From the IMG/VR virus record IMGVR_UViG_3300042387_001520, positions 1-30,149 of that record: DNA of 30,149 bases. One strand, 5' to 3'. Origin of the DNA: a virus (taxonomy: Duplodnaviria > Caudoviricetes). The translations under genes were made by a program, and so were the position numbers. Below the pieces are notes generated by a model that saw nothing but the letters and a program-made list of their open reading frames with translations, was not told the origin of the DNA and ran no database searches. Shown piece after piece: positions 4,801-22,257 of the stretch. Each line of letters begins with the position of its first letter. Position 1 is the first letter of the stretch.

Positions 4801-7800
4801 CAGCCAGCAACCCATCACCAGTAAGCAACGGGAAGCCATCCGCACAAAAGCCGAGGCAGACCTCCGCGCCTCCCTCGAAGGCGAGGTGCGCAAGGTGATA
4901 GTCAACGAGCCCATCTACGCACAGAGCGGAGTCACCCCCGAGATCGTCAAAGGACTCTTCGGCCTCGACGCCCGCGAGCAATGGCCGGAACTCTACGATT
5001 GGTTCGCCCGGCAGGACGGAGCCACCAAAGCCAACATCGTTAAGCAGGCTATGAAGGGAATCCTCGACGCCCGCCTGGCAAAGTTCCAAGTTCAAGGCGC
5101 TCAAATCGGCACCAACACCCGCGAGGAAACGCAGACCGTCGGCGGCCGCGAGCCGACCCAAGACGAACTCCGCGAAGCATTCCACGCCGCCATGCGCAGC
5201 GAGATGAACGCCCGAAATGTGGCCGACCTCAAATACATCCGCCAAGAACTCATCGACCTGACCAAATGGTGGAAGCCCTTCGACATTACCCGCGCCACCC
5301 CCGAGCACCTCGCCTACCGCTTCAGCTCCGAGGAACTCTTCGCCGACGCCATGAGCGTCCTCCTCAACAGCCCCGCCGACCTCAAAGCCCGCGCCCCCAT
5401 TTTCTACGATACCTTCTGGAACAACCTCGACTCCCGCCCCCAAGTCAAAGCCAAGCTGGCAGAAATCTACGACCGCATCAGCAAAGGCCGCGACGCCGTG
5501 CTGGATAAACGCCTCGCCCGAGACATGGAGGCATTCAAAGCCGGTGCTGAGATTTTCATTAGCAAAAGCGCCGCCGCTCAAGCCCGCCGCGCCAGCCTCA
5601 CTGGATGGTGGGAGAATCTCAAAGACCAGTATTGGAATATCTACCAGCCGATCATTGATTCTGCCGCAAAGGCTCGCGCTGCCGGGAAGATCACGCCAGC
5701 CGAGGAGGACAGCATCCGCTGGTTCACCGAGGAGCATCCGCTTGCCGAAAGTAAACTCCAAGAGAAGCTGGCCGACATAGGCCGCCTCTACCAAAGCCTC
5801 GATGCGGCCGGTGTAGCCCGCGAAAACTTCGGCATCTTCCTCAAATACCACCGCATCGCCAATGAGCGCCTCGAAGTAACCCGAGAGATCGACGGGCAAA
5901 TGGAAGTCGTCGGAGAGACCGGCCGCGCAGTCATGTTCAACCCCGGCGGCGAGACAGACCGGACGGCAAGGGAGGCGCTTGCCAGGCTGCAAGCAACGCT
6001 TGGTCCCGAGGGCTACGCCGCGCTGGAAACCGCAGTAAGCGGGTTTCGTGATGTGATTTACTCCATCATGGAAGACGCCAATCAGTCCGGCCTTTTTTCA
6101 GCAGAGCTGTGGAAAACGATCAGCACAAACAAGGACAACTACGCCGCGTTCACTCCGCTCGAATATGTCCAAGAGTATCTTCCTTCAACGATCCGCAAGC
6201 AGGTAGGCACCTTCAAGGAAATCGCCGACCCTCTCCAGCAGACGGTGCTCAAAGTCATAAGTATCCACCGCGCCGCGCAGAACAACAGGTTCACCCGAGA
6301 AGCCGTGCGGGTAATCAGGCAAACCTCGCCCGAGCTCGTCACCACTGCGCCCATGAAATACAACGGCAAAACCATGGAGCCGCAGCCTCCCAAAAATTCG
6401 GCATTGTCTATGGTGGAGTGGAAAGTAAATGGCCAGCGTGTGGGCGCTCATATCCCCAAACGCTACGCCGCCATGTGGGAAGACAAATCCCCCGCCGAGC
6501 GCGATGCGATCCTGCGCCTGCTTTCGACGGGGTTTCAACGCCTCGTCTATGGGGCCATCATTCGCTACAACCCGGCCTTCCAGCTTTTCATGTCTCCCCT
6601 CCGCGACTTGCAAAGGTCACTCACCAACATGCCAGGAGGCATCAAAGGCCGCGCAAGGTTTGTCATGCGCCTCCTCGACCCCGAAGCTTGGGGAGCGTCC
6701 ATCGATTGGGCGCAAGGAGATGTGGGCAAGACGCAACTTATGCGCGAAATGATCGAAAGCGCCGCGACAGGGGGTCCTCACTCGGCCTTTGGCGGCCCCA
6801 TGGGGAGTAATGATGACAGCATCGATGCCATCCTGCGCAAGTTTCACCTCCAAGACCAGAAGTCGCGCAATGTTTATGTGCGAGCCCTCATGGCCCCGCT
6901 TAAAGCCATCGAGTTTGCCGGGCAGATTCTCCAGATGCTTCCCAAGGCGTCGGCCTACAAGGTGCTCGTCAAGGATATGGGAATGCCCGCACCGCAAGCC
7001 GCCAACACGATCCGCAACCACATCGGCATCCCCAACTACTACAAGAAAGGCCGCCACGCTTCATCAGCCGGGGCCATTGTGCCGTTTCTCAACATTTTTC
7101 TGCGGTCCTACGAATCGCTCCAGCGCAATTTCCGTGGAGCCGAGCGCAACATGAACGCCAAGGAATGGTGGCTCGCCTGGCTCTTCACCGGCGGCGGCCT
7201 CATAGCCGTGCTGCAAACACTCGCCAAGGAAGGCGTCCTCGGCGAAGAACTGCAAAAACTCTACTCCCGCGTGCCGAACTGGGACATGACCAACTTTGCC
7301 GTCCTTCCCCTGGGGAATGTCTCCACCGGCGACACCGGCGGCAAGACAGCCTACCTCCGGCTGCCGCAAGATGAAGGGCTGCGCGTCATCAATGGCGTCG
7401 TCGGCAAAGTCCTAAGCGCTTCGATCCGCTCCGCCAAAGGCGACCCCACCGCGCCGCAGCTTGGCGATGTCTTCGCAGGCATCAGCTCGCAAGTGCCAGG
7501 GCAAAACACGCTCATCGAGGTCGGCCAAAACTGGACAACCTTCTTGGCCGGCCGAAACCCGAGGGATAATTTCCGCAACCGCAACATCCTCTCCGAGGAT
7601 CAATGGCTCGCCGGGGGATGGGAAGCAACCAAGCCCATGCTCGGCTGGACGCTCGGCGCAACCGGCATCACAAACTTCTTCAACTACGACACCGAGGCCG
7701 ACACCCTCACCGAAATGACAATCAGCGCCACGCCGGTGCTGAACAAATTTCTCAAGATCAGCGACAGGGGAGTTTACCAAAACGATCTGAAGCTGAACCA

Positions 7801-8068
7801 GGCCGACGAGCGCGACATGGCTAAGGTGCGCCTCTCGCTGCCAGATTTCGTCAACGGGCTCCGCACCGAATACAACTACCTCAAAACCCGCAGCGAACAA
7901 CGCAGCGAGCGCGAAGAATTTAGATACCAAGAGCTCGGAATGTGGAACCGAGCCTATCGAAACGCCATGGACGAAGTGGAGACATCCATGGAACTCGGCA
8001 ACCGCTCAAGCGCCCAAAGCGCCATCCGCTCCCTCGTCCAAGAAAGCCAATACTACAAGCAACGCTAA
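1799..8068 (+). CDS. Large polyvalent internal virion protein (zincin-like HExxH metallopeptidase domain; LPD38-like C-terminus)
   Basis: ~2,089 aa from ATG 1799 (ATGA overlap). N-terminal FDPxTA repeats, Gly/Ala hydrophobic segments, MHEIGH (4658-4672) with downstream EELFADA (5330-5350), and C-terminal YLRLP...IE...N...F.AGRNP resembling LPD38. Confidence 0.75.
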   Translation: MSFDPSTAVLLEEDAPAFDPTTAVPLEEFDVSSAVLVEEDPALPSAVPSAVPQPDEAIDFLRDAERNGQAADDQGIKEGIFPQGSTPWKTLDGRLYIDPARYNMAVEQMWNLGVIDSTNYTELLKGTVDQWDEASQSYIPSVEKATAARRDLERRAGAYPEAKAAASGLLKGAMQTGAAIVAGPATAAATIPTGPGAVVAGIAGGTAAALGTGAAYDKALEASAKESELLDSFYAANQLAPGYNSAGQLVSILAPTPVSVSRLANAANLIRAEKGGAEAAKFISGALGTGAAIGVGTDVAIQAANIGLDKLIHPEINPLIAAEQYRQTGQQPPQRPEFDPASTAISGTLGALTAGIGVKARNKTYAPEELVTLENQVRTGRASRQEAEDYNVMRQAVQTLRADERLIDAQAIRRATVDAAGFRFLDTTEIINPRFQQAALADAGFTPRPSQPAIPYATENPQAAIPLQGQPAAYTGQAFLNRGGAAPAFQGGSNALPGPEGIQALPAPAAINPQVNPPETFDPSTATEIPPNTSTAPAAASGAPASTGSPELISGEGASVSKPKRRFPRISYDPAMFPVLSALQESPMRPSASGKAGGENDNWNEIRRTGRHFAETHRSTGKPYDVRAEELYRDRVISDPSPDALFNAYMAEVNSYRQLKDGDPQEAEYNKLQKQYDNFSKHALDPSDSKKAKLQPISASSLQIGDKVKIGDEWLNVKAIDPETFTISLQDGSKFGLQKVEDGTQMWVQEAELAAPPTGDIDNFFGEPIDTPAPAKQNDPFSGNIFSPSEMPFSLDRPVLDDSLTIQREADEAKRQQAAYEEAQKGQTKMAFADAGPQGPVMPAAATIPKPALNTYNDAQVFADYPDAVGVVRAMNGTWTMPLILGGLDKVPVVEMPEAVEFVKALSGGSPTVQIPRKRNALGSFSPNGQGVITLHPDLIKAGGEASAMMTFMHEIGHNIQFMDDFRMEKGNLLGIISGNPTLKQSIPLDPNPAPVEGWAYSQQPITSKQREAIRTKAEADLRASLEGEVRKVIVNEPIYAQSGVTPEIVKGLFGLDAREQWPELYDWFARQDGATKANIVKQAMKGILDARLAKFQVQGAQIGTNTREETQTVGGREPTQDELREAFHAAMRSEMNARNVADLKYIRQELIDLTKWWKPFDITRATPEHLAYRFSSEELFADAMSVLLNSPADLKARAPIFYDTFWNNLDSRPQVKAKLAEIYDRISKGRDAVLDKRLARDMEAFKAGAEIFISKSAAAQARRASLTGWWENLKDQYWNIYQPIIDSAAKARAAGKITPAEEDSIRWFTEEHPLAESKLQEKLADIGRLYQSLDAAGVARENFGIFLKYHRIANERLEVTREIDGQMEVVGETGRAVMFNPGGETDRTAREALARLQATLGPEGYAALETAVSGFRDVIYSIMEDANQSGLFSAELWKTISTNKDNYAAFTPLEYVQEYLPSTIRKQVGTFKEIADPLQQTVLKVISIHRAAQNNRFTREAVRVIRQTSPELVTTAPMKYNGKTMEPQPPKNSALSMVEWKVNGQRVGAHIPKRYAAMWEDKSPAERDAILRLLSTGFQRLVYGAIIRYNPAFQLFMSPLRDLQRSLTNMPGGIKGRARFVMRLLDPEAWGASIDWAQGDVGKTQLMREMIESAATGGPHSAFGGPMGSNDDSIDAILRKFHLQDQKSRNVYVRALMAPLKAIEFAGQILQMLPKASAYKVLVKDMGMPAPQAANTIRNHIGIPNYYKKGRHASSAGAIVPFLNIFLRSYESLQRNFRGAERNMNAKEWWLAWLFTGGGLIAVLQTLAKEGVLGEELQKLYSRVPNWDMTNFAVLPLGNVSTGDTGGKTAYLRLPQDEGLRVINGVVGKVLSASIRSAKGDPTAPQLGDVFAGISSQVPGQNTLIEVGQNWTTFLAGRNPRDNFRNRNILSEDQWLAGGWEATKPMLGWTLGATGITNFFNYDTEADTLTEMTISATPVLNKFLKISDRGVYQNDLKLNQADERDMAKVRLSLPDFVNGLRTEYNYLKTRSEQRSEREEFRYQELGMWNRAYRNAMDEVETSMELGNRSSAQSAIRSLVQESQYYKQR

Positions 8069-9159
8069 AGCGGCTTCGGGCGGTTGATGAGATTGTGGTA
8101 GTGATTAAATGTGGTCTGGATGTCCCTGTGCCGCAGTAACCGGCTCGCCACCTCGATGCCATCCCTCGCCGCAATCTGAGCGCCGTATTCTTTACGCAGG
8201 TTGTAAGCGCCCTTCTCCCCGTCAGGAATGTAGAGCCTCACAAATTCATTGATGCCGTAATGCGTCAGGTCAAAAGCCTCCGTCTTGCTTGTCCTGGGAA
8301 TCACATACTCGCTCTCGCCTGCAAGCGCCTTTTGGATCAACCGCAGCAACCGCGCCCGCATCGGCACGCGGCCGCTCCGGCCTTTGGGAGCCCAGTCGTC
8401 GCGCTTAATCAATACCAGGTCCGCCGTGCCATCCTCCTGCCAATCCACCCAGCTCCACTTGAGATATTGCACCTCGTCATTGCGCAAGCCCGCCTTGCGC
8501 ATCAGCCAATAGATAGCCCAGACCCGAGCATTTTGACGCCGCAGCGGGATCCTCGCCGCCCGATCCATACGCCGGAGCGCCTCGCGGTCGATAGGCTGAT
8601 AACCCTCCGTCGTTGCCGAGCCCCCCGACACCGCCCAGAAATCCGTCAGATTCGGCAGCTTCAATTTTTCAAACAGGTAAAATCTTTTACGGGCCACCAC
8701 GCTCTTGATCGTCTGAACATCGGTATGGATGCCGCTCTCCGAGCGCCCCGCCTTTTTCTGGGCCTCAATCCATCCCCGCATCGCCGAGGCCGTCAGCACC
8801 AGGTGCGTGCTCTGCTCCTGCCAGTCCTGCCGCTCTGTCACCTCCCGCACAAAAGTCGCAAACCGGCTTAGGCTCTTCGTCTTCGAGGCTGCCGGTCCAT
8901 GCTCCTTGTAAATCTCCGCCACCTCGCCGCACTTCGCAAAGCCCGGCCGCTTCACCACCGCAGCAATCTTGTGCTCGTCCGCCGTAGCCAGCGCCAAGGC
9001 AATCGCCTTAGCCCTCACCAGCGCCGCCGCCTTCCCCGCCGCCGAGTGCACATGCACGCCCGTGCTCTTGCTCACCCGCTCGCCATCTACCTGGACGCGG
9101 AAATACCAAGTATTTTTCGCCGCAATCCAATCGACCGAAATCTCGCCATGTTTTCTCAT
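8065..9159 (-). CDS. int: Tyrosine recombinase / phage integrase
   Basis: GLRNDE (catalytic R), PKGR (K), YNLRK (H-x-x-R box with Y in place of H), LLRHRDIQTTFNHY (H and catalytic Y). N-terminal arm-binding-like beta region WYFRVQVDGERVSKSTG. Start moved to ATG 9159 because the upstream extension runs through the att arm repeats. Confidence 0.92.
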   Translation of the reverse strand: MRKHGEISVDWIAAKNTWYFRVQVDGERVSKSTGVHVHSAAGKAAALVRAKAIALALATADEHKIAAVVKRPGFAKCGEVAEIYKEHGPAASKTKSLSRFATFVREVTERQDWQEQSTHLVLTASAMRGWIEAQKKAGRSESGIHTDVQTIKSVVARKRFYLFEKLKLPNLTDFWAVSGGSATTEGYQPIDREALRRMDRAARIPLRRQNARVWAIYWLMRKAGLRNDEVQYLKWSWVDWQEDGTADLVLIKRDDWAPKGRSGRVPMRARLLRLIQKALAGESEYVIPRTSKTEAFDLTHYGINEFVRLYIPDGEKGAYNLRKEYGAQIAARDGIEVASRLLRHRDIQTTFNHYHNLINRPKPL

Positions 9160-9164
9160 AATAG

Positions 9165-9188
9165 GGACACCACTTTGGACACCACTTC
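9165..9188 (+). repeat. Integrase arm-type sites, tandem pair GGACACCACTTT GGACACCACTTC
   Basis: Two 12-bp direct repeats immediately upstream of the int start codon; same consensus as 9285 and 9395. Confidence 0.75.
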
Positions 9189-9284
9189 GACCCGAAAAAC
9201 AAAGCAAATCGCGCAAGCATTGCAAGCCCTCGAAAACCCAACAAGCAGCAATCTTCTGAGTGCTACAGAGGGAAAACGGCGCAA

Positions 9285-9296
9285 GGACGCCACTTT
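9285..9296 (+). repeat. Integrase arm-type site GGACGCCACTTT
   Basis: Matches the consensus GGWCRCCACTTT; lies between int and the att core. Confidence 0.7.
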
Positions 9297-9312
9297 AAGA
9301 GAAGAGGGGGAG

Positions 9313-9355
9313 TGCAGCCATGAGGAGTCGAACCTCAAACCTTCTGATCCGTAGT
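9313..9355 (-). other. attP: attP core: 3' half of tRNA-Arg(ACG)
   Basis: Minus strand reads ACTACGGATCAGAAGGTTTGAGGTTCGACTCCTCATGGCTGCA, i.e. anticodon loop CTACGGA, 3' anticodon stem, T-arm GAGG-TTCGACT-CCTC and 3' acceptor strand. The 5' half is absent. Adjacent to int and flanked by arm repeats. Confidence 0.88.
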
Positions 9356-9394: not shown

Positions 9395-9418
9395 GGTCGC
9401 CACTTTGGAGGCCACTTG
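9395..9418 (+). repeat. Integrase arm-type sites, tandem pair GGTCGCCACTTT GGAGGCCACTTG
   Basis: 12-bp direct repeats on the other side of the core, same orientation as the left-arm copies. Confidence 0.75.
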
Positions 9419-9661
9419 CTACTTGCGGATTTGTCGCCATTCCTCGGGGTCGGGGCGTTCGGGGCGGCCGGTGGCGGTGTTGAGTTGGCGGCGGATCCAG
9501 GCGCTGAGTTTTTCGGGCTTGGCGGCTCGGACCCAGGCGGATTTTTCTTCGGGGTAGCAGAAGAAGAGGATTTTGCTGGTCATGTTTTCGGCTCCCTCGG
9601 GGTCGCGTGCGTTGTTGCGGTTTCCGGTGTTGCCGTGGGGTTCGTTGAGGTCGGGTGTCAT
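9419..9661 (-). CDS. Small DNA-binding protein, RHH-like
   Basis: HGNTGNRNNA N-terminus, then a beta strand (SKILFFC) and two helices (PEEKSAWVRAA, KLSAWIRRQLN); last gene of the leftward operon, abutting attP. Confidence 0.6.
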   Translation of the reverse strand: MTPDLNEPHGNTGNRNNARDPEGAENMTSKILFFCYPEEKSAWVRAAKPEKLSAWIRRQLNTATGRPERPDPEEWRQIRK

Positions 9662-11027: not shown

Positions 11028-11894
11028 TTAGGCGGTTTTCAGTTTCTTCATTTCCTCAGCCAGTGCCCACAGGGCGCGGTTGATGTTGGTGTTTTGGTCG
11101 ATGCCTCCGATTTCGCGGGTGCGGCGGCGGGCTACGAGGCGGCCGTTTTCGTTGCGTTGGACATAGCCAAGGCCACCACGGACGAGGTTTTCTTGAACTG
11201 CGTTTAATGTGTTCCACATGGTCGGGGCTGCGTCCTCATGGCGCCGGAGGGTGAGGATCTGCTCGGCTTTGACGGGTGCGGGCTTCTCGGGGTCGTCATA
11301 TCTGGCGACCAGGGCGGCGCGGGCAAATGCTTGTTGCTCGCCTGGGGTGAGTCGGAGGGCGTCCATTTCGCGGATGCTCTCGGAGACCTCGGGGAGCCGG
11401 TCGAGGATGCTGATGCAACCCTCGATGACTTGGCCCTCGATGTTTCCTTTGTGGGGGATGCGGATGTCGTCGATGAGGTTTTGAGCAACTACCATGCCGT
11501 TGCCACAGATGAGGCGGAAAACTCCGGCCATGAGGCGGTAGGATGAAGTTCCGTCATGCGAATTTAACAGAACGATCTCGTTATGCGTGCCGCCGACTTG
11601 GAGCGGCTGGCTATCGTGGCGGAGGCGGATGAGGTGCTTTGTGAACCCGCGTTTTTCTTCCTCCCTGCTGCCGCCTTGCATGACTGCGTAAGGGCGGAAG
11701 CCCTGCCGGGCAAGGCCGGTGAGAATTTCGCTCGTTGGAATGTATTTGTATGCGGCGGACCGGCTGCCGTGGGCCTGCTCGGCGAATACCGATGGCGCAA
11801 TCTGGCGGAGGCGTTCGGGTTCGATGGATCCGGTGCGGCTGGTGAAGTTCACCGCGCCGTTGCTGCGTGTCCTGGCGAATCGTGTGATTGTCAT
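11028..11894 (-). CDS. DUF932-family protein
   Basis: RSAAYKYIPT, GFTKHLIRLR, EIVLLNSHDGTSSYRLMAGVFRLICGNGMV and WNTLNAVQENL match the plasmid/ICE/phage DUF932 family. Confidence 0.85.
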   Translation of the reverse strand: MTITRFARTRSNGAVNFTSRTGSIEPERLRQIAPSVFAEQAHGSRSAAYKYIPTSEILTGLARQGFRPYAVMQGGSREEEKRGFTKHLIRLRHDSQPLQVGGTHNEIVLLNSHDGTSSYRLMAGVFRLICGNGMVVAQNLIDDIRIPHKGNIEGQVIEGCISILDRLPEVSESIREMDALRLTPGEQQAFARAALVARYDDPEKPAPVKAEQILTLRRHEDAAPTMWNTLNAVQENLVRGGLGYVQRNENGRLVARRRTREIGGIDQNTNINRALWALAEEMKKLKTA

Positions 11895-12703: not shown

Positions 12704-13015
12704 TTATCCAGCCTGGCGGGAGTTCGGGGTTGTCTGAGTTGATAATCCACCATCGGAGGTTTGCAATGGATTCACCACATTCTGGGCATTGTCCTGGGGA
12801 GGATGGTTTCCCTGCGGGTTTGTTCTGGTAGTGGTTTTTGCGTAGCAGGCAGATTCTGATGCCGCCTCTGTAAGTGCAGCACGCGCCCAGCCGCCGCGAG
12901 TCAGCCCGCTTCGGGCTGCCAGTGCGTCGATTTGCTCCATGGTTTTTTCGTCCACCGAGGTAGAAATAGACACGGACCCTTTCCCTACTCCGTGCCCGGT
13001 TTTTTCTTTTCTCAT
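12704..13015 (-). CDS. Ribbon-helix-helix (CopG/Arc-like) regulator, putative immunity repressor
   Basis: VSISTSVDEKTMEQIDALAARSGLTRGGWARAAL follows the RHH strand-helix-G-x-T/S-R-helix pattern; divergent from the early rightward operon. Confidence 0.7.
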   Translation of the reverse strand: MRKEKTGHGVGKGSVSISTSVDEKTMEQIDALAARSGLTRGGWARAALTEAASESACYAKTTTRTNPQGNHPPQDNAQNVVNPLQTSDGGLSTQTTPNSRQAG

Positions 13016-13063
13016 AAGAGACTTGTAAAGCAGGAAAAATTTCTTTCAATTTTTTTGTTGCAT

Positions 13064-13164
13064 TCTCACGAGAAACCTACGAGAAACGAGGAAGTGAGGT
13101 GAACACCCCACTTGACCACATGAAAACTCTACAAACTCAAATCTCACGAGAAATCCACGAGAAA
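13064..13164. promoter_or_regulatory. Duplicated operator-like sites TCTCACGAGAAAnCyACGAGAAA
   Basis: 13064-13086 and 13142-13164 match at 21/23. Each has two ACGAGAAA units 11 bp apart and a TCTC-AC-GAGA palindrome. Confidence 0.7.
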
Positions 13165-13266
13165 ATCGAGCAGATGGCCAAGCGCCAAATGATCAGCCGG
13201 GCCGCCGTTGTGCGGCAACTCTTAGCAAAAGCCGTTGAGAAAGCGACAGCGGAGGGCCAGATATGA
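13120..13266 (+). CDS. Ribbon-helix-helix regulator (48 aa), Cro-position gene
   Basis: Translated by hand: MKTLQTQISREIHEKIEQMAKRQMISRAAVVRQLLAKAVEKATAEGQI; not in the ORF track. Confidence 0.75.
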   Translation: MKTLQTQISREIHEKIEQMAKRQMISRAAVVRQLLAKAVEKATAEGQI

Positions 13267-13409
13267 GCCGCCTTTTTTTGTGCCGGGCGATGGATCCGCT
13301 GCGGGGTCCGTTTGGCGACTATGTGCGGGCGACATCCGCAAAGGCTGCGCGGGCGCGTTTTTTTGAAATTTTTGGACTTAGGCCGTTTTCGGTGGAGGTG
13401 GACAAATGA
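13263..13409 (+). CDS. Hypothetical protein (48 aa)
   Basis: MSRLFLCRAMDPLRGPFGDYVRA...; ATGA overlaps at both ends. Confidence 0.6.
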   Translation: MSRLFLCRAMDPLRGPFGDYVRATSAKAARARFFEIFGLRPFSVEVDK

Positions 13410-13513
13410 TCACCCCTGATGCGATTCATTTTATCGGTTGGACCTGGGAAGCGCTGTGCGCTCTTGGACCGGCTGCGGCGCTGGCGTTGCTCGCCTGGAG
13501 GATCGGGGAATGA
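13406..13513 (+). CDS. Small hydrophobic protein (35 aa)
   Basis: MITPDAIHFIGWTWEALCALGPAAALALLAWRIGE; ATGA overlaps at both ends. Confidence 0.55.
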   Translation: MITPDAIHFIGWTWEALCALGPAAALALLAWRIGE

Positions 13514-13734
13514 TTGAGCAGCATTATAGCCCGGCCCAGCTCTGCAAGCTGCTTAGTCTTTCCAGGTCGGCGGTGCAATCGAGGCTCTATGACGGGACTT
13601 TTCCTCATGTCCGCCTGGGTGATCGCATTTTGATTCCGGAGTCCAGCATCAAGCGGGTGCTCGAGGAAGGCCGCATTGGTGGCTCGGTGTATCTCCGCCC
13701 TGGTCGCAAACCGTGGGCCGCGTCGCTCACTTAG
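13510..13734 (+). CDS. Excisionase-like winged HTH protein (HTH_17)
   Basis: YSPAQLCKLLSLSRSAVQSRLYDGTFPHVRLGDRILIPESSI matches the Xis/HTH_17 pattern; start at ATG 13510. Confidence 0.8.
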   Translation: MIEQHYSPAQLCKLLSLSRSAVQSRLYDGTFPHVRLGDRILIPESSIKRVLEEGRIGGSVYLRPGRKPWAASLT

Positions 13735-13756
13735 CGCCGCCGCTTTTTTGTTTTTT

Positions 13757-14593
13757 ATGGAATCCCCTTTGATGAAAGCCGACGCCTTAGAATCTGCCGC
13801 GCCTTTTCTTTTTGCGGAGGCGGAAATCGGGGCTGAGAAGCTCGAAGCCACGGGAGAGTTTAGCGGTGAGCGGTTGCTTGCCCGTCGGCCGGAGGTTTAC
13901 CGGGCGATCTGCCGCATGAGCGCCGAGGGGCTGAGTATGTCGGCCATGGCTCGGGCGTTGGGAGTGAGTAGGAACACGGTGGCGGCCGTCCAAGAGCGGG
14001 AACAATTTCCTATAGAGCAGCAGAAAAAGGAGTTGCTCAAGAATGTGAGGACTGCGGCCCGCCTTTCGGTGGAGCGAGTTGTCGAGTTGGTGCCTTCCAT
14101 CAACAATGCCAAAGATGCGGCCATCGTCGCTGCGGTGATGGTGGACAAGCTCCAGTTGCTTTCGGGTGAGGCCACAGCCCGAGTGGAGCGAGTCGAGGTT
14201 AACCAGGATAAACTCTCGGAGATGCTGGCCAGCCTGCCGGTGCTCGAGGCTGAGGTGCTGCCGGTAACCGGTCCACACGGGAGCGGGTCGGGACAAAAGG
14301 GGTCGGGCGGATCGGGCGGATTGGACGGATCTGGGAGCGCTGCCGATGCGGTCTCTGATACCGAATCAGAAGGCTCTAACTACGCAGGAGGGCTGCGGGT
14401 CGCCACTTTGGATGCCACCTGCGCCGTCGAGCCGGTCGAGGTCGAGGCCGTGGCGGTCGATCAGGAGGGGGGGAGGGGGTCTGGATTTTCGGACACCCCC
14501 CCTATGACACCCACTGATTTGGGTGAGCGGAAAATTTTATGCAAAGGGGTCTCTTCGTCGCAGGAGGCCGCTGAGGAGCTTTCAACTAACTAA
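13757..14593 (+). CDS. HTH protein, putative terminase small subunit, with low-complexity C-terminal tail
   Basis: HTH GLSMSAMARALGVSRNTVAAV, then a helical region KDAAIVAAVMVDKLQLLSGEATARVE reminiscent of TerS oligomerisation segments; the tail overlaps G-run/C-run DNA. The TerS call is inference. Confidence 0.55.
   Translation: MESPLMKADALESAAPFLFAEAEIGAEKLEATGEFSGERLLARRPEVYRAICRMSAEGLSMSAMARALGVSRNTVAAVQEREQFPIEQQKKELLKNVRTAARLSVERVVELVPSINNAKDAAIVAAVMVDKLQLLSGEATARVERVEVNQDKLSEMLASLPVLEAEVLPVTGPHGSGSGQKGSGGSGGLDGSGSAADAVSDTESEGSNYAGGLRVATLDATCAVEPVEVEAVAVDQEGGRGSGFSDTPPMTPTDLGERKILCKGVSSSQEAAEELSTN
14354..14421 (+). other. Second att-like site (core mimic plus arm-type repeat pair) inside the putative terS
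   Basis: TCTGA-TACCGAA-TCAGAAGG (14354-14373) and GGTCGCCACTTT GGATGCCACCTG (14398-14421). Confidence 0.6.
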
Positions 14594-14596
14594 CCT

Positions 14597-14884
14597 ATGG
14601 CTGACTCAAAAAATAAAAAAAACGCGGCGGTGGCCGCTGCTGTGACTCCGGAGGCGGTGACGCCTGATCCGGTGAAGGTGAAGGTGTATCGCCCGACTCC
14701 GAACCGCTACTTGGTGCAGGTGCAAATTCCTACGGGCGAGGCGGGCACGATGCGCGTGGCGCTCATGCGCGTGAAGGACAGCCGGTTCTACCGCCCTGGT
14801 GAGATGATTCCGGCGCTGCCTGGAGAGCGCGATATTTGGGCTCCTCTCAAACAACGGTTTTCTCCTGCTATTGGCACTTTATGA
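14597..14884 (+). CDS. Hypothetical protein
   Basis: 95 aa, beta-rich, operon-coupled. Confidence 0.65.
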   Translation: MADSKNKKNAAVAAAVTPEAVTPDPVKVKVYRPTPNRYLVQVQIPTGEAGTMRVALMRVKDSRFYRPGEMIPALPGERDIWAPLKQRFSPAIGTL

Positions 14885-14976
14885 AAAAAACAACAACCCT
14901 GTTTCAGTCTGCGGCTGTGAGCGTTGCGCTCTATCGCCGTTTTATTGAGCAAAAAAAAACGGCCCCGAAAAAATGA
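14881..14976 (+). CDS. Small hypothetical protein (31 aa)
   Basis: MKKTTTLFQSAAVSVALYRRFIEQKKTAPKK; ATGA overlaps at both ends. Confidence 0.45.
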   Translation: MKKTTTLFQSAAVSVALYRRFIEQKKTAPKK

Positions 14977-15203
14977 AAATAACCACAGAGAACACAGAGA
15001 ACACGGAGATGGAGTGGCGGGATGCTTCAGTGACGCTTCCTGACGATGGCGAGACGGTCATCATTCACACGCTGGGCGGTGAGGTTTGGACGGGATTCCT
15101 TGACGGAGACATCTGGCGCAATGTCGCCGGGTATCGCATTCACGAGGAGGAGCCGGTTTTGCATTGGATGCCGCTTCCAAATCCCCCGAAGGAGGCAAAA
15201 TGA
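14973..15203 (+). CDS. DUF551-like protein
   Basis: WRDASVTLPDDGETVII ... VLHWMPLPNPP signature. Confidence 0.8.
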   Translation: MKITTENTENTEMEWRDASVTLPDDGETVIIHTLGGEVWTGFLDGDIWRNVAGYRIHEEEPVLHWMPLPNPPKEAK

Positions 15204-15778
15204 AATCACGACTCATTGTCATCGACACGGAGACGGGGGGCTTTGACCCCTCGAAGAATGCGCTTCTTAGCGTGGCGGCGGTGGATTCCATGGATAACGA
15301 GGCGTTTACTGCGATTATCAGGCCAAACCCTGAGTGGCTTTGCGAGCCGGATGCGCTGGCAAAGAATGGCTTTACTCTCGATTTTCTGGAAAAAAACGGG
15401 CGGCCGGAGCGCGATGTGATGCAGGATCTGGCCCTCTGGCTGGGTGAGCGGCGCTACTCGGTGCTGGCTGGCTGCAATGTGGCGTTCGACCGCGACTTCC
15501 TGCGGGCGGCGTTTGCGCGGAATGAACTGACTTGGCCGATGGGCAAGATGGTGGACCTGCAAGCGACGGCGTGGCTGGCCTACGAGGTGGGGGCTCTCAC
15601 CCTGCCGGTGGGCAAGGATGGGCAGCCTCGGCTGAATCTGGACCATATCGCAGCGGCGCTGGGCTTCTCCCGATCTGGCAAGACGCACAATGCGCTGGAA
15701 GATGCGCTGATGACGCTGGCGTGCTTCCACCGCCTGCGTCGGCGCGTGGAGATGGCACCTGAGCCTATCACCGCATGA
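15200..15778 (+). CDS. DEDDh 3'-5' exonuclease (DnaQ/RNase T-like)
   Basis: ExoI VIDTETGG, ExoII GCNVAFDRDFL, ExoIII HNALEDA. Confidence 0.9.
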   Translation: MKSRLIVIDTETGGFDPSKNALLSVAAVDSMDNEAFTAIIRPNPEWLCEPDALAKNGFTLDFLEKNGRPERDVMQDLALWLGERRYSVLAGCNVAFDRDFLRAAFARNELTWPMGKMVDLQATAWLAYEVGALTLPVGKDGQPRLNLDHIAAALGFSRSGKTHNALEDALMTLACFHRLRRRVEMAPEPITA

Positions 15779-15987
15779 AAGGCGTGGACTACGACCAGCA
15801 CCAGACGCAGAACGCCCAATCAAACTCCGTGCAAGCCCTGGAGCCGGGCGATGCACGGGTGGGTTGGATCTCTGTGCGCGACAGCCGGGCGATCTCGGCG
15901 GCCTGCGACCGCTGGCTGGAAAAAAGAGGCGTCCGGACGCGCAGCGTTTGGTGGGACTCTCAGCTTCAAAATCGAAAGAAAAAATAG
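15775..15987 (+). CDS. Hypothetical protein
   Basis: 70 aa, ATGA overlap with the exonuclease gene. Confidence 0.55.
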   Translation: MKGVDYDQHQTQNAQSNSVQALEPGDARVGWISVRDSRAISAACDRWLEKRGVRTRSVWWDSQLQNRKKK

Positions 15988-15990
15988 AAA

Positions 15991-16872
15991 ATGCACTTTT
16001 ACAGATTTAATATCAAGGACTATGCGGTTAATACAACGCATCTCACTAATGAGGAAGATTTAGCGTATCGCAGGCTTCTTGACCTCTACTACACTGACGA
16101 ACAACCTATACCAAACAATAACCAATTGGTTAGTCGTAGGATTCGTATTGCGGCAGAAGTTGTCGATGTTGTGTTGAACGAGTTCTTCGTGCTCACGGAA
16201 AATGGCTGGATTTGCGGCCGAGTAGAGGAAGAAATCGAAGGTTACCGGAATCTTTGCCGTAAGCGTAAAGAGGTGGGGGCCAGTGGTGGACGCCCTCCAA
16301 AAAAACAAGCTAAACCAAAAGGAAAGCAAGATGAAACCAATAGGTTAGCAATTGCGCCGATACCAGTAACCAATAACCAGTATATATCCCCTATAGTCCC
16401 CACAGGGGACATGGAGTTGGAAATCGAAGAAACTCCAAAGCCAGAAACGACGCATCCTGTCCTGACCCGCTTCCGAAATCTCTTCAACCTTCGAGACTCG
16501 ACACCTCTTGACTCCTCCTCCTCCCGTGCTTGGGAGAAAAATAAAAAAGCGGCGGTGGCCGTGAGCGAAGATGATTGGCGCTTCCTGGAGTGGGCCTATC
16601 GGCAAAAAGAAGGCGCGGCGGCGCAGTTTCGCCGCAAGGACTTAGCTACGCTTTTGAATAACATTCTCACCGAGGTGAGCCGGGCAAGGGATTGGGCAGG
16701 GCGCAGTGGGGCGAGCGTGAGCGCAACGGCTCCTGTCTCCACCGAACCCGCTGGATGGCGTGATCTTATCGAGACGGAATTTCCCGAAGTGAACCTCACC
16801 ACTTGGGCGCTTCTCCCCGACAGCATGAAATCTTGGGTTCGTGAAAAACAACGCGAACTCGCAGCAGCATAA
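15991..16872 (+). CDS. Phage replication initiator, YdaU/DUF1376-like N-terminus
   Basis: FYRFNIKDYAVNTTHLTNEEDLAYRRLLDLYYTDEQPIP ... VLNEFF ... GGRPPKK; upstream of DnaB; internal iteron-like repeats. Confidence 0.85.
   Translation: MHFYRFNIKDYAVNTTHLTNEEDLAYRRLLDLYYTDEQPIPNNNQLVSRRIRIAAEVVDVVLNEFFVLTENGWICGRVEEEIEGYRNLCRKRKEVGASGGRPPKKQAKPKGKQDETNRLAIAPIPVTNNQYISPIVPTGDMELEIEETPKPETTHPVLTRFRNLFNLRDSTPLDSSSSRAWEKNKKAAVAVSEDDWRFLEWAYRQKEGAAAQFRRKDLATLLNNILTEVSRARDWAGRSGASVSATAPVSTEPAGWRDLIETEFPEVNLTTWALLPDSMKSWVREKQRELAAA
16313..16380. repeat. Putative replication origin iterons within the initiator gene
   Basis: AACCAAAAGGAAAGCAA (16313) and AACCAATAGGTTAGCAA (16335), 22 bp apart; related palindrome AACCAATTGGTT at 16120; TACCAGTAACCAATAACCAG at 16361-16380; AT-rich surroundings. 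Confidence 0.55.
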
Positions 16873-16883
16873 TAAAAACCAAC

Positions 16884-17201
16884 ATGATACAAACAATCGA
16901 AACAATAGAAAAAGAAGGCGTGGTCTATGTCGTGACACGGCATAACCCCGAGTGCAAGAATGATTTCCTGCAATGGCAGGTGGGCGTCTATGAGAGCCGC
17001 CCAGTCGAAGACCCGATCTACGAGACCATGTGGCGCGAGGATGGATCGCCGGTGACAAGCGATGATGGGGCAATCCAATACCGCCTCATGGGTTACGAGT
17101 TGAATACACGGGTGTCGTGTCAGGTTTTCAACCTCCTCGGGTTTGGCTCAAATTTAAAAAAGGCGCGGGCCATGGCGAAACATAAACTCCTCGCTGCGTG
17201 A
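16884..17201 (+). CDS. Hypothetical protein
   Basis: 105 aa between the initiator and the helicase. Confidence 0.65.
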   Translation: MIQTIETIEKEGVVYVVTRHNPECKNDFLQWQVGVYESRPVEDPIYETMWREDGSPVTSDDGAIQYRLMGYELNTRVSCQVFNLLGFGSNLKKARAMAKHKLLAA

Positions 17202-18568
17202 TGAAAAGCATCCTTCCCGAAAATCAAATCGCCGAAAAAGCCGTGGTCGGCGCGGCGATCACCGATGGCCGCACGGCAGATAGCGTGTTGGAGGCGCTGT
17301 CGCCCGAGCAGTTTGTGCTGCCCGCGCATCAGACGATCATGGGTATTGTCGCCGCCATGCGGCAGGCTGCCCGGCCGGTGGACCTTATCCTGGTGACGAC
17401 CGAGTTGGAGAAGGCGGGCCAGCTTGAGGAGTGCGGCGGCTATGCCTATGTGACTGAGCTGGTGCAGGAACTATCCATCACGATGAATTGGCGGCACTAC
17501 GCTGCCGAGGTGCTGGATGTCTGGAAACGCCGTGCCATGCGCCAAGCGGCCCTCGCCATGGCCGAGGCGGCAAACGACTTTGCACTCACCACAGAGGATG
17601 CCCAAGAACGCTGCGAGCAGGCGCTGTATGCCCTCCGAGAGCACTCGACAAGGGAAAACCCTGTCTCGCACTGCAAAAACGCCGTGCTGGCCGCCGTGGA
17701 GCATATCGAGAAGGTGTATCACACCCGAGGCGAGACCGTGGGGCTGGAGACCGGCATCCATGATCTGGACCGCTCGACCGGCGGGTTCCTCGGCGGGCAG
17801 ATGATCGTCATCGCCGCTCGCCCTGCCTGTGGCAAATCGGCGCTTGGCATGCAGATAGCCCTCCACGCGGCCATGCAAAATGCCGTGCCGACGCTGGTCT
17901 TTTCGGTGGAAATGCCCAGCTCCGAGCTGATGATTCGAGCGATCTGCTCCGAGGCAGGCTTGGACCTCCAGCGCACACGCGACGGGTTTTTTGACGGCCG
18001 AGCCATGGGGAATGTCTCGGGCGCAGCCACCCGGCTGGTGCAGAGCAAGCTCTACCTCGACGACACGCCGGGCCTCACCGTGGCGCAATTCCGCAGCCGG
18101 GCGCGGCGGGCCAAGTCGCAGCACGGCCTCGGCCTCATCGTGGTCGATTACCTGCAATTCATGCACGGATCCTCCAAGCGGGCAGGCGAGAGCCGGGCGC
18201 TGGAAGTGAGCGAGATTTCCAAGGCGCTCAAGACCACGGCCAAGGAGCTGAACATCCCCATCATCGCCCTGGCGCAGCTCAACCGCGACGCCGACGAAGG
18301 CTCCAAGCCAAAGCTCTCGAACCTCCGCGAATCCGGCAGCATCGAGCAAGACGCCGACACCGTGCTCCTCATCCACCGCCTGGACAAAAACAAGAAAAAA
18401 TCCGACGCCGACGATGAGCCGATGGATCACAACACCTTGCTCATCCTTGCAAAACAAAGAAACGGCCCGACGCCGGAAATCAAAATGAACTTCATCGGCC
18501 AGCACACGCTTTTCAAAAATGTGACCGAAAAGGCGTATAGCAACAACCAGAACGAAAGACAGAAGTAA
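17198..18568 (+). CDS. dnaB: Replicative DNA helicase DnaB
   Basis: AARPACGKS (Walker A), FSVEM, IVVDYLQ, LAQLNR, LRESGSIEQDAD, KQRNGP. Start is GTG 17198 or ATG 17201. Confidence 0.96.
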   Translation: MMKSILPENQIAEKAVVGAAITDGRTADSVLEALSPEQFVLPAHQTIMGIVAAMRQAARPVDLILVTTELEKAGQLEECGGYAYVTELVQELSITMNWRHYAAEVLDVWKRRAMRQAALAMAEAANDFALTTEDAQERCEQALYALREHSTRENPVSHCKNAVLAAVEHIEKVYHTRGETVGLETGIHDLDRSTGGFLGGQMIVIAARPACGKSALGMQIALHAAMQNAVPTLVFSVEMPSSELMIRAICSEAGLDLQRTRDGFFDGRAMGNVSGAATRLVQSKLYLDDTPGLTVAQFRSRARRAKSQHGLGLIVVDYLQFMHGSSKRAGESRALEVSEISKALKTTAKELNIPIIALAQLNRDADEGSKPKLSNLRESGSIEQDADTVLLIHRLDKNKKKSDADDEPMDHNTLLILAKQRNGPTPEIKMNFIGQHTLFKNVTEKAYSNNQNERQK

Positions 18569-18579
18569 AAAATAAAACC

Positions 18580-18816
18580 ATGACCATCAGCCACAAATCC
18601 ACGCGCAGCATCACGGAATATCATTTCCAACTTACCTCAGACATCGCCGCCCCAAAGTGTCCGGACACTTTGGGCAAAGTGATCATTACCTTCGAGAACG
18701 GCAAATTTTCTCGGTGCGATTTCCCGTTTAAAGGCACCTATAACCGCGAGCAGTGGTCGATGCTGGCGGAGATCGAGAACGAGATTCACCGCATCGAGCT
18801 AAGTCTTTTGCGATGA
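18580..18816 (+). CDS. Hypothetical protein
   Basis: 78 aa following dnaB. Confidence 0.6.
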   Translation: MTISHKSTRSITEYHFQLTSDIAAPKCPDTLGKVIITFENGKFSRCDFPFKGTYNREQWSMLAEIENEIHRIELSLLR

Positions 18817-19006
18817 GCGAATCGGTAAGCCGTGAGTGCCAGTCGGTGAGAGTCACGCGAGGAGGCCGCAGTCTGAACGGAATTTGCGCGGATGGCTTAA
18901 AAACTAATGACCTCCCTCTGAATGGTCTCCACAAACCACGGACTCAGAGCCGGGGCGCGACGGATACGCGCATTCACCCTTTTAACCCCATACAACACCC
19001 ATAAAT

Positions 19007-19252
19007 ATGTCAATAGTATCTGATTCAGCGATAGCCTGCCCCGCCTGTCACCGCGAGTGGCAGGATCACCCTGGAGTGGCGCATTGTTGCAAGCTCTCGG
19101 TCGAGCTGGCCGCCAACCTCCGCGCCGTCCTCACCTATGTGAAACCACCGGAATACACCCGAGACATCGGCGAGCAGGAGGTTTTCTTCGACCTCATGGA
19201 AAATGCCAGGCGCTTGATCGTGAAAGCGCGAACTTTTGAAAGTGAATTATGA
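19007..19252 (+). CDS. Hypothetical protein with CPAC...HxxxxHCC motif
   Basis: 81 aa; possible metal-binding motif. Confidence 0.6.
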   Translation: MSIVSDSAIACPACHREWQDHPGVAHCCKLSVELAANLRAVLTYVKPPEYTRDIGEQEVFFDLMENARRLIVKARTFESEL

Positions 19253-19434
19253 GTGACGAACAAAAACACGGGGTCATGCTCGGCCAGATAGCCTGCCTGG
19301 TTGAGGAGTTCTGCACCGCAGAAGAAACCACATTACAAGGCGTGGCGCATCTCATGGCCAGGTATTTCGACCTACGAGCAAAGCAAGCATGGGATTTTGT
19401 CGATCAACTCAAAGAGGAGGCCAACGATGAGTGA
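19249..19434 (+). CDS. Hypothetical protein
   Basis: 61 aa, ATGA-coupled. Confidence 0.6.
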   Translation: MSDEQKHGVMLGQIACLVEEFCTAEETTLQGVAHLMARYFDLRAKQAWDFVDQLKEEANDE

Positions 19435-19657
19435 ATTTTTAAGCGAAAACCGGCGACTCCAAGCGGAAGTCGAAAAGCTCATCGAGGAAAACATGAACCT
19501 TACCAGCGTGATCCGCACGCTGCGGAAGAACTTGCGCCATGACAATGAGAAGCTGGAAACGGTGAGTCGTGAGCTATGGCTTTGGAAAAATGGGAGATAC
19601 CATCTCGATTGCGTAGCGACTGAAGACTGCAAGAGTGAAGCAGAGGTGAGGGGATGA
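19427..19657 (+). CDS. Hypothetical coiled-coil protein
   Basis: Start at ATG 19427 (MSEFLSENRRLQAEVEKL) after GAGGAGG. Confidence 0.6.
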   Translation: MSEFLSENRRLQAEVEKLIEENMNLTSVIRTLRKNLRHDNEKLETVSRELWLWKNGRYHLDCVATEDCKSEAEVRG

Positions 19658-20199
19658 CTCCGAACGAAATGCTTTCCATGATCGCGCAGCTCCGGCGCGA
19701 GCGCGACGAGGCGAGGCGGCAGTTTGAAAACTTAAAGGCCGCCGCAATCCACACTTGTCACGATCAATGCCAAAGGCCGATGTGCGTATTGAGGCGCGAG
19801 TGCAATGAGGCGAGGCAGCAATACGACGACCTCGCCACCGAGCATATGCTGGCAGTCAATAAACTCGCTGAAGAGCGCGACCAGGCGCTGATGGATCGTG
19901 CCAATGGGGATATGGCCACAATGACCATCAACCACTACGAAAGACTTATCAAAGAGCGGGACGAGGCGCGAGCCGATGCGGCCAGAATTGCGGACAAATT
20001 GTCCGGATTGGAACTTCGTTCGACTGAGGAGTTGGCGAGGCTGGAGCAAGAACGCAACGAGGCTTTGGCTCAAATCAAAGAGCTAATGTATATCGGGGAA
20101 CGCGCTATTGCGTTGGCTGAAATAGATTTTGAGAACGACAAGTTCGGCGTTGTATCTGAACTCCGGGATGATTTGGCAAAAATAAAGAAATCCAAATGA
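19654..20199 (+). CDS. Coiled-coil protein built from ERDEAR-type repeats
   Basis: RERDEAR, RECNEAR, EERDQAL, KERDEAR, QERNEAL. Confidence 0.7.
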   Translation: MTPNEMLSMIAQLRRERDEARRQFENLKAAAIHTCHDQCQRPMCVLRRECNEARQQYDDLATEHMLAVNKLAEERDQALMDRANGDMATMTINHYERLIKERDEARADAARIADKLSGLELRSTEELARLEQERNEALAQIKELMYIGERAIALAEIDFENDKFGVVSELRDDLAKIKKSK

Positions 20200-20378
20200 A
20201 CTCCCTGCGCGACTACATCGCTTTCCGCCGGATCGACGCCACCCATGCGCTGAACCTTCTTCAAGACGCCGGGGTTATCTCCGATCTGTGCGTGACGGTC
20301 GATGATGTTGGCGATGCTGGGAAGGCCGTAGCCTGGTTAAGCCTGCATGAACACGAACTGAAAAGGGCTGCAAAATGA
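20196..20378 (+). CDS. Hypothetical protein
   Basis: 60 aa, ATGA-coupled. Confidence 0.6.
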   Translation: MNSLRDYIAFRRIDATHALNLLQDAGVISDLCVTVDDVGDAGKAVAWLSLHEHELKRAAK

Positions 20379-20557
20379 AAGAAGTAGATTGTCTCGTGCA
20401 TACATCCGCTGATGATTTGCGGGTTCAAACCAAGTATTTCCGCATGACGGGCGTTTATCCTGAGAGCGCTGTTTTGCGTGAAGCTCACGAAACTTGCGTG
20501 CGGCTTGGCTACAAAACGAAAGCGAAAATTTTGCAGCCTCTTCTCAAGCGCCCATGA
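20375..20557 (+). CDS. Hypothetical protein
   Basis: 60 aa, ATGA-coupled to terL. Confidence 0.55.
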   Translation: MKEVDCLVHTSADDLRVQTKYFRMTGVYPESAVLREAHETCVRLGYKTKAKILQPLLKRP

Positions 20558-22257
20558 TTCCCCAAACGCAAAACCCTGTTATCCCGCTCATCGAGGTTGA
20601 AGGCCGGTTGGCCGATGGACGCTTTGTTGTTCGGTATCAAGGCCAGAAAGTCGCCGCCACGGAGGCGCAGTTGCTTGCCATTCACCGCGAGCGGGAAGAG
20701 CAGATCGCCCGCATGGTCGAAGACCCTTGGCGGTATGGCTGGCTGAATCCAGCCTGGGAGCGGGCGGATGCGGCTTATGCGGAGCTGCGGGAGAGATTCC
20801 CGAAGGGCGTCACGGAGCTGCTTATCCTCGGCGGCAACCGCTCGGGCAAGTCGCGTTACTTTGCACGGAAGGCGATGCAGCATTTGGTGAACACGCCGGG
20901 CGCGAAGGTGTGGTGCCTGCAATCCACCGAAGCGGCATCCATCCAAAACCAACAGCCCTATTTGTGGGAGTATCTGCCGAAAGAATGGAAACCCTCCGCC
21001 AGCGGCAAGCTCAAGAAGGGCGCGGTGGCGAATATCACCTACTCGCAGAAGGGCGGCTTCACCGAGAACAGCTTCGTGCTGCCGAATGGCTCGCAGTGTT
21101 GGTTCAAGTTCTACTCGATGGATGTTTCCTCGATTGAGGGTGCGGAGTTGAATTTTTGTTGGGCAGACGAACTAGTAACCCCCGACTGGCTGGAAGCACT
21201 TCGTTTTAGGCTACTTACGCGAGACGGTGAACTCGGCATCGGCTTCACGCCGGTGGAAGGCTACACGACCACGGTCAAAGAATACCTCGACGGCGCAAAG
21301 ACATTGGAAGAATGCGACGCCCCGCTCCTGCCGCGCTACCGCGATGGCAACTTGATCGGCTTAGAGCAAGTGCCGCGCATCCAGCAATGCACCAGGGAAA
21401 AAGCCCGCGTCGTTTATTTCCACACCTCGGACAACCCCTACGGCAACCCCGAGGCTATGGAGACCGAGCTGCGCGGCAGCAACCGCGAGCGAATCTTGAT
21501 GCGTGCCTACGGCGTGCCGACCAAGGCGAGGATGTCGATGTTTCCAAAATTCCGCGACACGGTTCATGTGGTGCCTGCCGACAAGGTGCCGGGCGATGGC
21601 ACGGTCTTTCACTTTGTGGACCCCGGCGAGGGCAAGACATGGGCCATGCTTTGGATCCGCTACACGCCGGATGGCCGGTGCTGGATTTACCGCGAATGGC
21701 CGGACCAGATCGAATACATCGAGGGCGTGGGCTATCCCGGCGCGTGGGCCGAGGCAGATGGCAAGCTGCAAGACGGCCGCCCTGGGCCAGCGCAAAAAGC
21801 CTGCGCGGGCTTTGGCTTTGAGGATTACAAACGCATCATCGACGCTGCCGAGAAAACCGACTCCGCCGAGCCCTCCGAGCGTTGGATGGATAGCCGCTAT
21901 GGCAACACGCCGACGATGACACAGGAAGGCGTGCGAACGCTCATCGAGCAATGCAGCGACCGCATCGGTCTCGACTTCCGCGCCACCAGCGGGCAGGCGA
22001 TTGTGGAAGGTGTCACGCTCATCAACGATTGGCTCGCCTACAACGAAGACGCGCCGGTGGATGCGCTGAACTCGCCGCGCCTCTACATCTCTCAACGCTG
22101 TCAGAATCTCATCTATGCGCTGAAAACATGGACCGGTGCCGATGGCAAAAAGGGAGCGACAAAGGACTGGATCGACATTCTCCGCTACATCACGCTCTCC
22201 GGCGTAGGCTACGAAGACCCCGCCATGCTCAAAGCCCGCCCAGGAGGCAGCTATTGA
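20554..22257 (+). CDS. terL: Terminase large subunit
   Basis: Walker A LILGGNRSGKS, Walker B FCWADE, motif III FTP, nuclease-domain FVDPG ... KDWIDILRY; start at ATG 20554. Confidence 0.93.
   Translation: MIPQTQNPVIPLIEVEGRLADGRFVVRYQGQKVAATEAQLLAIHREREEQIARMVEDPWRYGWLNPAWERADAAYAELRERFPKGVTELLILGGNRSGKSRYFARKAMQHLVNTPGAKVWCLQSTEAASIQNQQPYLWEYLPKEWKPSASGKLKKGAVANITYSQKGGFTENSFVLPNGSQCWFKFYSMDVSSIEGAELNFCWADELVTPDWLEALRFRLLTRDGELGIGFTPVEGYTTTVKEYLDGAKTLEECDAPLLPRYRDGNLIGLEQVPRIQQCTREKARVVYFHTSDNPYGNPEAMETELRGSNRERILMRAYGVPTKARMSMFPKFRDTVHVVPADKVPGDGTVFHFVDPGEGKTWAMLWIRYTPDGRCWIYREWPDQIEYIEGVGYPGAWAEADGKLQDGRPGPAQKACAGFGFEDYKRIIDAAEKTDSAEPSERWMDSRYGNTPTMTQEGVRTLIEQCSDRIGLDFRATSGQAIVEGVTLINDWLAYNEDAPVDALNSPRLYISQRCQNLIYALKTWTGADGKKGATKDWIDILRYITLSGVGYEDPAMLKARPGGSY

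Follow-up and report, generated by a model that had tools for sequence, protein, structure and literature searches.

Why would a phage carry, within the tail of its putative terminase small subunit gene (terS) and 5 kb away from its attP, a second set of sequences resembling the recognition elements of its own integrase? The question was raised by a first-pass annotation of a linear virus record (30,149 bases, 73% complete), the whole of which is referred to here as the window.

Gene order and integration module

The genes of the window appeared in the order integrase (minus strand, 8065–9159), attP, a leftward block, an excisionase-like gene, an HTH gene (the putative terS), replication genes, terL and a SU10-type capsid gene. 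The excisionase-like HTH_17 gene (13510–13734, plus strand; Pfam HTH_17 at 5e−9, phrog_66) lies directly 5′ of the terS-like gene (13757–14593, plus strand), and the gene of the terminase large subunit (20554–22257, plus strand; Terminase_6N, phrog_2) is found 6 kb 3′ of the latter. The roughly 6 kb of replication genes between the two (14597–20553) separate genes whose counterparts in phage C75C1 are nearly adjacent. Moreover, the leftward block holds a DUF932 gene (11028–11894), which is also present in the relative L003. The relatives came from lake metagenomes and from genome bins titled Verrucomicrobia or Chthoniobacter.

The tyrosine integrase (364 aa; Pfam and PHROG integrase matches) has the three-domain layout of the lambda type. 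Residues R226, K259, R322 and Y354 were invariant in all 29 aligned relatives, and the predicted model, with an N-terminal three-stranded sheet plus helix, could be aligned over its full length to lambda Int (1z1b). Both an N-terminal arm-binding domain and the catalytic R-K-R-Y residues of a heterobivalent integrase were thus found, and the protein is predicted to be catalytically intact and, as modelled, lambda-like in fold. The first His position of the HxxR motif was Tyr in 29/29 aligned integrases, several of which also lacked the second His. Furthermore, the N-terminal and catalytic parts of the L012/L054 and L013 integrases were of different ancestry, the arm sequences following the N-terminal part.

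A total of five arm repeats were identified in attP, namely a pair of 12-bp direct repeats on the int side (9165–9188, plus strand), a single repeat (9285–9296) and a pair on the phage-only side (9395–9418, plus strand). The single repeat belongs to a tRNA-side block (9252–9296, plus strand) that also comprises a putative core-type half-site (9252–9259) and a candidate accessory-protein motif (9263–9272). The common core (9312–9355, minus strand; overlap at 9348–9354) corresponds to the 3′ half of tRNA-Arg(ACG), and contigs from public runs had 9312–9355 in common with the window and then continued into the 5′ half of the tRNA. The additional half-site at 9252–9259 precedes the single arm site by about 25 bp; it recurred at matching places in relatives and tracked the tRNA target, being of the Lys type in Lys phages. 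In five loci (L102, L103, L104, L107 and L109) the int-attP cassette was inverted and attP held the 5′ instead of the 3′ half of tRNA-Arg, the 7-bp overlap being identical.

Anatomy of the second site

In the second core (14351–14373, no strand assigned), a 7-bp spacer of its own (14359–14365) is flanked by two core-type half-sites in inverted orientation. The inverted repeat that had been described around this spacer was present at 14354–14373 and was the only one of its kind in the window. With one mismatch allowed, the chance mean was 0.04 and 4 of 100 shuffles reached one match, and the core in the window alone, before relatives are counted, is only modestly above chance. The core is no copy of the attP core; it is made of two copies of the tRNA-side half-site and is more symmetric than attP. 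A cryptic tRNA was discarded at this position, as no tRNA was called.

The second arm-type pair (14398–14421, plus strand) showed the similarity previously claimed for it, with two mismatches in the 25 positions compared (14398–14422 against 9395–9419 in attP; 23/25). A 21-base arm pattern shared by both places had two matches in the window and none in 100 dinucleotide shuffles, which rules out a chance repeat. The two further differences from attP that had been pointed out were also confirmed: the spacer was identical to the attP overlap at 3/7 positions in either orientation, and the spacer-to-arm distance was 32 bp at the second site and 40 bp at attP. Between core and arms, a linker motif (14379–14387, plus strand) resembling 9263–9272 was kept in 17 window-type tails and may be bound by Xis or by some other bending protein; in several clades it resembled, as judged by eye, the motif in the phage's own attP.

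The site is located in frame in the variable tail of the terS-like protein, which has HTH matches and consists of an HTH and a helical body of about 162 conserved residues followed by that tail. The reported position in the tail was correct, while ‘terS’ stays a putative label, the fold having no significant match. In the same manner, a G-run starts about 44 bp past the arms, close to the 40 bp reported to a ‘pac-like’ region, and only the distance was corroborated, the label being retained as putative.

Survey of terS-like tails in relatives

Loci L003–L116 were fetched by protein searches in which the terS-like body and the integrase served as queries, and loci found by scanning for the core pattern were left out of all counts. 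A total of 102 loci (window included) reached the tail, which resulted in 75 distinct tails after collapsing those with identical first 160 bases. An Int-type core was found in 63 of them and a dif-like 11-6-11 site of 28 bp in the other 12, with no tail presenting both or neither, these being counts of related sequences and not of independent events, obtained with patterns written after the sequences had been inspected. The match rates in shuffled stretches were 5e−4 for the Int-type core and 7e−5 for the dif-like site.

All 63 Int-type tails presented inverted core-type sites around a 7-bp overlap, and all 63 cores were in the terS frame. The codon GAT was found in 63/63 and TCA in 62/63, while the spacer codons encoded many different residues; since the core codons are fixed and those of the spacer are not, the constraint acts on the DNA, and a constraint on the protein is ruled out by this codon pattern. 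Overall, the second site is real and under selection.

Co-variation with the integrase and the tRNA target

If the tail motif were read by the integrase, it should co-vary with the arm sequences and the tRNA target of each phage, and it did. Both an integrase and a tail were available for 50 distinct phages (three of them paired across two loci of one contig), 41 of which were of the Int type. The core class agreed with the tRNA target in 37/37 Arg and 4/4 Lys phages, and the four Lys-type tails were dispersed over a quick TerS tree, each at a different position. The tail arms had a score of 18.7 of 22 when compared with the arms of their own attP and of 15.8 with those of other phages. Moreover, arm similarity correlated best with the similarity of the N-terminal 75 residues of the integrase (rho of 0.69), followed by that of the whole integrase (0.60), and far less with that of the adjoining TerS body (0.33, and 0.07 within the close clade). 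In particular, the window and L003 have TerS proteins 99% identical, integrases 63% identical and different arms, each fitting its own attP (20 and 20 vs. 12 and 13). Where the N-terminal domain and the remainder of the integrase have different nearest kin, as in L012 and L013, the arms followed the N-terminal domain.

The tail arms scored best against their own integrase cluster in 34 of 41 phages, six others being near ties (another cluster ahead by ≤1.5 points) and one a clear miss. This exception, L062, scored 15 for its own integrase and 19.4 for another cluster, and could be a recombinant or a chimeric assembly. The proposal that the second site is an integrase-recognition site is supported by this co-variation.

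The partner of the second site

A secondary integration site was ruled out by the spacers, which do not match attP. A total of 21 different spacers were found, and the identity to the phage's own attP overlap was 2–4 of 7 in 41/41 cases, never exceeding 4/7. No second site thus had the overlap identity expected of a partner att site, which places it outside the set of attP, attB, attL and attR. One option in the first-pass annotation had been a rare exchange with attP that inverts or deletes the 5-kb control region, and it could draw on both sites being read by the same integrase 5 kb apart and on the inversion of int-attP in a distant clade. However, it fits neither the spacer mismatch nor the orientation of the sites: in five distant phages with an inverted int-attP and a tRNA 5′ half, the tail site kept the same orientation to terS, so that its orientation relative to attP is not conserved. 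Furthermore, no joint between attP and the second site was among the 15 joints listed in four runs (a weak test, based on contigs only, two of these runs being possible sources). Likewise, eight matches were obtained in metagenomes, and the four of them that were phage hits all had normal and no hybrid flanks (also a weak test). Such an exchange is scarcely credible.

The spacer mismatch had also led to the suggestion that the integrase may bind here without recombining. This was not supported, as a match between the spacer and attP is not required when the site pairs with another copy of itself. The inner spacer varied less than its flanks in three of the four integrase clusters (0.11–0.24 vs. 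0.31–0.45 in clusters 1–3), and in cluster 0 its variation was about equal to that of the right flank.

A dif-like cassette as replacement

The dif-like sites in 12 of the 75 tails are 28 bp long (11-6-11; two of the 12 have one degenerate arm and needed a looser pattern), with arms like those of the host dif and with 6-bp centres of their own. A pattern derived from them found similar sites in genomes of the host family, and, once refined, gave one match each in 15 of 102 incomplete host-family genomes and none in the control. The two host copies inspected were intergenic and in a housekeeping context (lepA-like and obg-like, judged from translations), and each of four host-family genomes encoded two strong tyrosine recombinases of 300–365 aa, the size of XerC/D. 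The IHF-type consensus, used here for the motif scan, had a match exactly 65 bp 5′ of the dif-like site in 7/12 tails, with a second one at 27 bp in three, and in none of the 63 Int-type stretches; the other five dif-like sites had no strict IHF-type motif. The host-family site is similar to ACTTCGCATAATATATGTAATGCCAAAT, the predicted dif of Akkermansia (PMC3025954).

These sites do not replace the integration module, as all nine paired dif-type phages keep an integrase and a tRNA attP, and integration at dif by a phage that has no integrase of its own does not describe them. In the L113 prophage, the junction with host genes lies at a tRNA-Thr-like sequence (by eye), the dif-like tail site is found intact at about 4.6 kb into the prophage, and that of the host is on another contig; therefore, the dif-like cassette is not the integration site. 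The L113 junction (6090–6200, G001:C4) was found at a tRNA-Thr-like 3′ half with arm-like repeats of its own, and could represent a third target for these phages. No integrase was found in L113 using that of the window as the query.

The interchange of Int-type and Xer-type sites is a natural experiment that points to a crossover rather than mere binding. An integrase bound at the second site could act as a roadblock for the replication operon, as an end-protecting cap or as a decoy, and there is precedent in integrases that repress through their att sites (as reported in PMC2951348) and in the extra arm-like sites of mycobacteriophages, for which a regulatory use is considered in PMC3706429. 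However, no promoter-like match was found in 12900–15000, an integrase decoy could not be replaced by a Xer site, and mere binding needs neither an exact 7-bp or 6-bp spacer nor one that varies less than its flanks, as seen in three of four clusters. The roadblock and decoy options of the first-pass annotation, as well as its idea of an integrase bridging att and pac, leave unaccounted for the 12 tails that have instead a site of the host Xer type, which is armless and has no link to attP. A binding-only role is accordingly given little probability.

A crossover of some kind between two copies of the second site is thus considered highly probable. One source of two copies would be the phage circle itself, which may form dimers or multimers when it replicates or is excised, and which the site would resolve to monomers. 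Such a role would involve the same anatomy and the same Int/Xer interchange, and the IHF-type motif at a fixed distance from the dif-like sites recalls Xer sites under accessory control, such as cer and psi, which carry accessory sequences. Moreover, plasmid prophages carry Xer-like recombinases for dimer resolution (described in PMC8026635). However, it would leave unexplained the location in a coding tail and the constant proximity to the G-run (≤125 bp), tRNAs are the integration targets of these phages, and the one complete relative gave no hit to a partition gene. Dimer resolution is the main rival to the reading proposed below, and is itself rather unlikely.

The G-run and the ends of the genome

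The G-run is followed by a C-run and an A/T block (14464–14540, plus strand), a putative packaging-start or terminus motif found in all 71 tails long enough to reach it, the remaining four of the 75 being too short. It was located 88–123 bp from the spacer end in Int-type tails (n = 59) and 16–63 bp from the dif-like site (n = 12), the site lying leftward of the G-run in both cases. The same G-run was found in phage C75C1, about 170 bp 5′ of the gene two ORFs 5′ of terL. The TerL of C75C1 is 32% identical to that of the window, and the product of the gene that follows the G-run aligned weakly with the terS-like protein in a profile comparison (109 columns, 28%, E of 0.0096, probability of 4%). 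As the G-run in C75C1 precedes a gene that is near terL and aligns in this way, the terS identity and a packaging or terminus role of the motif are likely. C75C1 encodes an Erf-like protein, and no look-alike of the second site was seen in it by eye.

The terS-like protein had no match in INPHARED and its fold none at E ≤ 0.001 in BFVD and the PDB, its neighbours in the Atlas being unnamed viral HTH proteins. The TerL of the window matched two phage records and had no significant match in the PDB, and a further search with the TerL of C75C1 gave uncultured records. Kin of the capsid protein at 23–32% identity include LUZ24-like and Vibrio podoviruses. LUZ24 has an annotated terminal repeat of 184 bp that is rich in G runs and does not contain the exact motif of the window, which is only a hint as to the ends of the window phage.

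Several candidate ends were rejected. Contig starts about 1.2 kb 5′ of terS were caused by a heptamer (GGTGGCT) repeated in tandem, at which assemblies break; this array was found ~1.1–1.25 kb 5′ of the terS-like start in L005, L010, L011, L012 and L039, is absent from the window, and may be a slippage tract near a lipoprotein-like gene. Among five near-complete records, G107 opens inside this array. The end overlaps of G104 (328 bp, covering the second site) and G105 (174 bp) have internal mismatches and look like strain bubbles, and those of G106 and G108 (126–127 bp) are assembler overlaps. The depth per contig in four runs showed no consistent step. Separately, Roseobacter phage CRP-603 (L188, 7380–7560) has IHF-type motifs and then a G-rich block 5′ of its terS-terL module, a layout like that of the dif-type tails.

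The constant link to the G-run could also mean that the recombinase acts in packaging, a broader form of the att-pac bridge of the first-pass annotation, where crossover or nicking between neighbouring copies would build concatemers or restore a terminal repeat, or where the bound complex would position the terminase. The tight linkage and fixed orientation to the G-run, the Xis-like gene in the same operon, the candidate Xis motif in the linker and spacer-to-G-run distances peaking at 101, 110 and 122 bp, roughly helical steps, would agree with it. However, in-frame indels alone impose steps of three, the distances from dif-like sites (16, 23, 33, 36 and 63 bp) show no clear phase, and the integrase and XerCD would both need to serve the terminase. 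A packaging role is deemed distinctly improbable.

Proposed function of the second site

The reading that is preferred here is that the main job of the second site would be the cyclisation of a linear, end-repeated phage genome after infection, with a probability of roughly 0.5. Common to both cassettes is a tyrosine-recombinase crossover site with a self-matching spacer, predicted to pair only with another copy of itself and located no more than ~125 bp from the putative terminus motif; the tight tie to the G-run favours an end-repeated genome over a dimer as the source of the two copies. The G-run would mark the packaging start or terminus, and the second site would fall inside the terminal repeat or redundancy, resulting in one copy at each end of the virion DNA. 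The integrase would bind and cut the site in an attL-like complex comprising the core, one arm pair and a bending protein, and the private spacer would insulate it from attP and attB, so that it could pair only with another copy of itself. A crossover between the two end copies would then close the linear genome into a circle, a job that would fall to the host XerCD in the 12 dif-like tails. No PHROG hit to an annealing protein, a partition protein or a second recombinase was obtained in the one complete relative (111 six-frame ORFs of 110–900 aa, E ≤ 1e−4).

The main weakness of cyclisation is that a cut at or to the right of the G-run, followed by packaging along the direction of terS transcription, would leave the site at one end only; the first molecule packaged could therefore not be closed, and dimer resolution or a role at the packaging stage would take over. 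Further points against it are the weak identity of TerS, L062 together with the arm misfits in 6/41 phages, the 5/12 dif-like sites with no strict IHF-type motif and the presence of the G-run with no second site in C75C1.

In its full form, the proposal is that one integrase carries out two insulated reactions, integration at attP and genome closure at a site with a private spacer in the terminase gene, the second of which can be handed over to the host XerCD by a cassette swap; this is advanced tentatively, at somewhat under even odds. Under this proposal, a lambda-type integrase would perform a second reaction that is orthogonal to the first. Circularisation must precede integration in temperate phages whose ends are repeated rather than sticky, by a route that is assumed for most of them, and these freshwater phages show a candidate solution readable in the sequence. 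If true, it would be a general and overlooked way for such phages to circularise with no phage recombination protein, and it provides a search image for other phages, in which the packaging motif would be accompanied either by a symmetric core with the phage's own arm pair or by a dif look-alike.

Comparison with known systems

In a full-text literature search, no title or abstract opening among the papers listed described a second site for a phage's own integrase at terS or an Int/Xer swap. A close likeness is found in phage P1, which has terminally redundant virion DNA and whose pac site is located in the gene of the small terminase subunit, not far from loxP. Linear DNA packaged by P1 is cyclised by Cre, which acts on identical lox sites (as described in PMC2841073). 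In both cases a tyrosine-recombinase site would act on a second copy of itself, for which identical spacers suffice, and Cre-loxP also resolves plasmid dimers. Unlike loxP, the second site has no dedicated Cre, a single tyrosine recombinase hit having been found among the 111 ORFs of the complete relative, and its predicted reader is the tRNA-targeting integrase. Moreover, it has arm-type repeats and a 7-bp spacer, lies in a coding tail about 100 bp from a putative terminus motif and can be swapped for a host Xer site.

Regarding lambda, exchange between two attL sites occurs. As reported in PMC4880445, attL, made of the core and one arm pair, forms a synapsis-competent complex. The second site has the same build. 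However, attL arises by integration and contains the attP overlap, whereas the second site is a permanent extra that is located far from att and differs in its spacer and in the symmetry of its core. The 12 dif-like cassettes are in turn similar to the XerCD sites cer and psi, having two 11-bp dif-like arms, a 6-bp centre and, in 7/12, a fixed upstream motif for protein binding. Dif-using phages such as CTXphi and gokushoviruses integrate at dif, while the dif-type relatives keep their own integrase, a tRNA attP and private centres. Bacillus tyroviruses have short terminal repeats, tyrosine recombinases and an 11-6-11 site to which the account in PMC9703825 assigns no known role; nevertheless, they have three phage recombinases, and their site is found in the tail module, next to a recombinase gene and not at the packaging motif. 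By analogy, the second site would work like loxP and the Xer resolution sites while belonging to neither.
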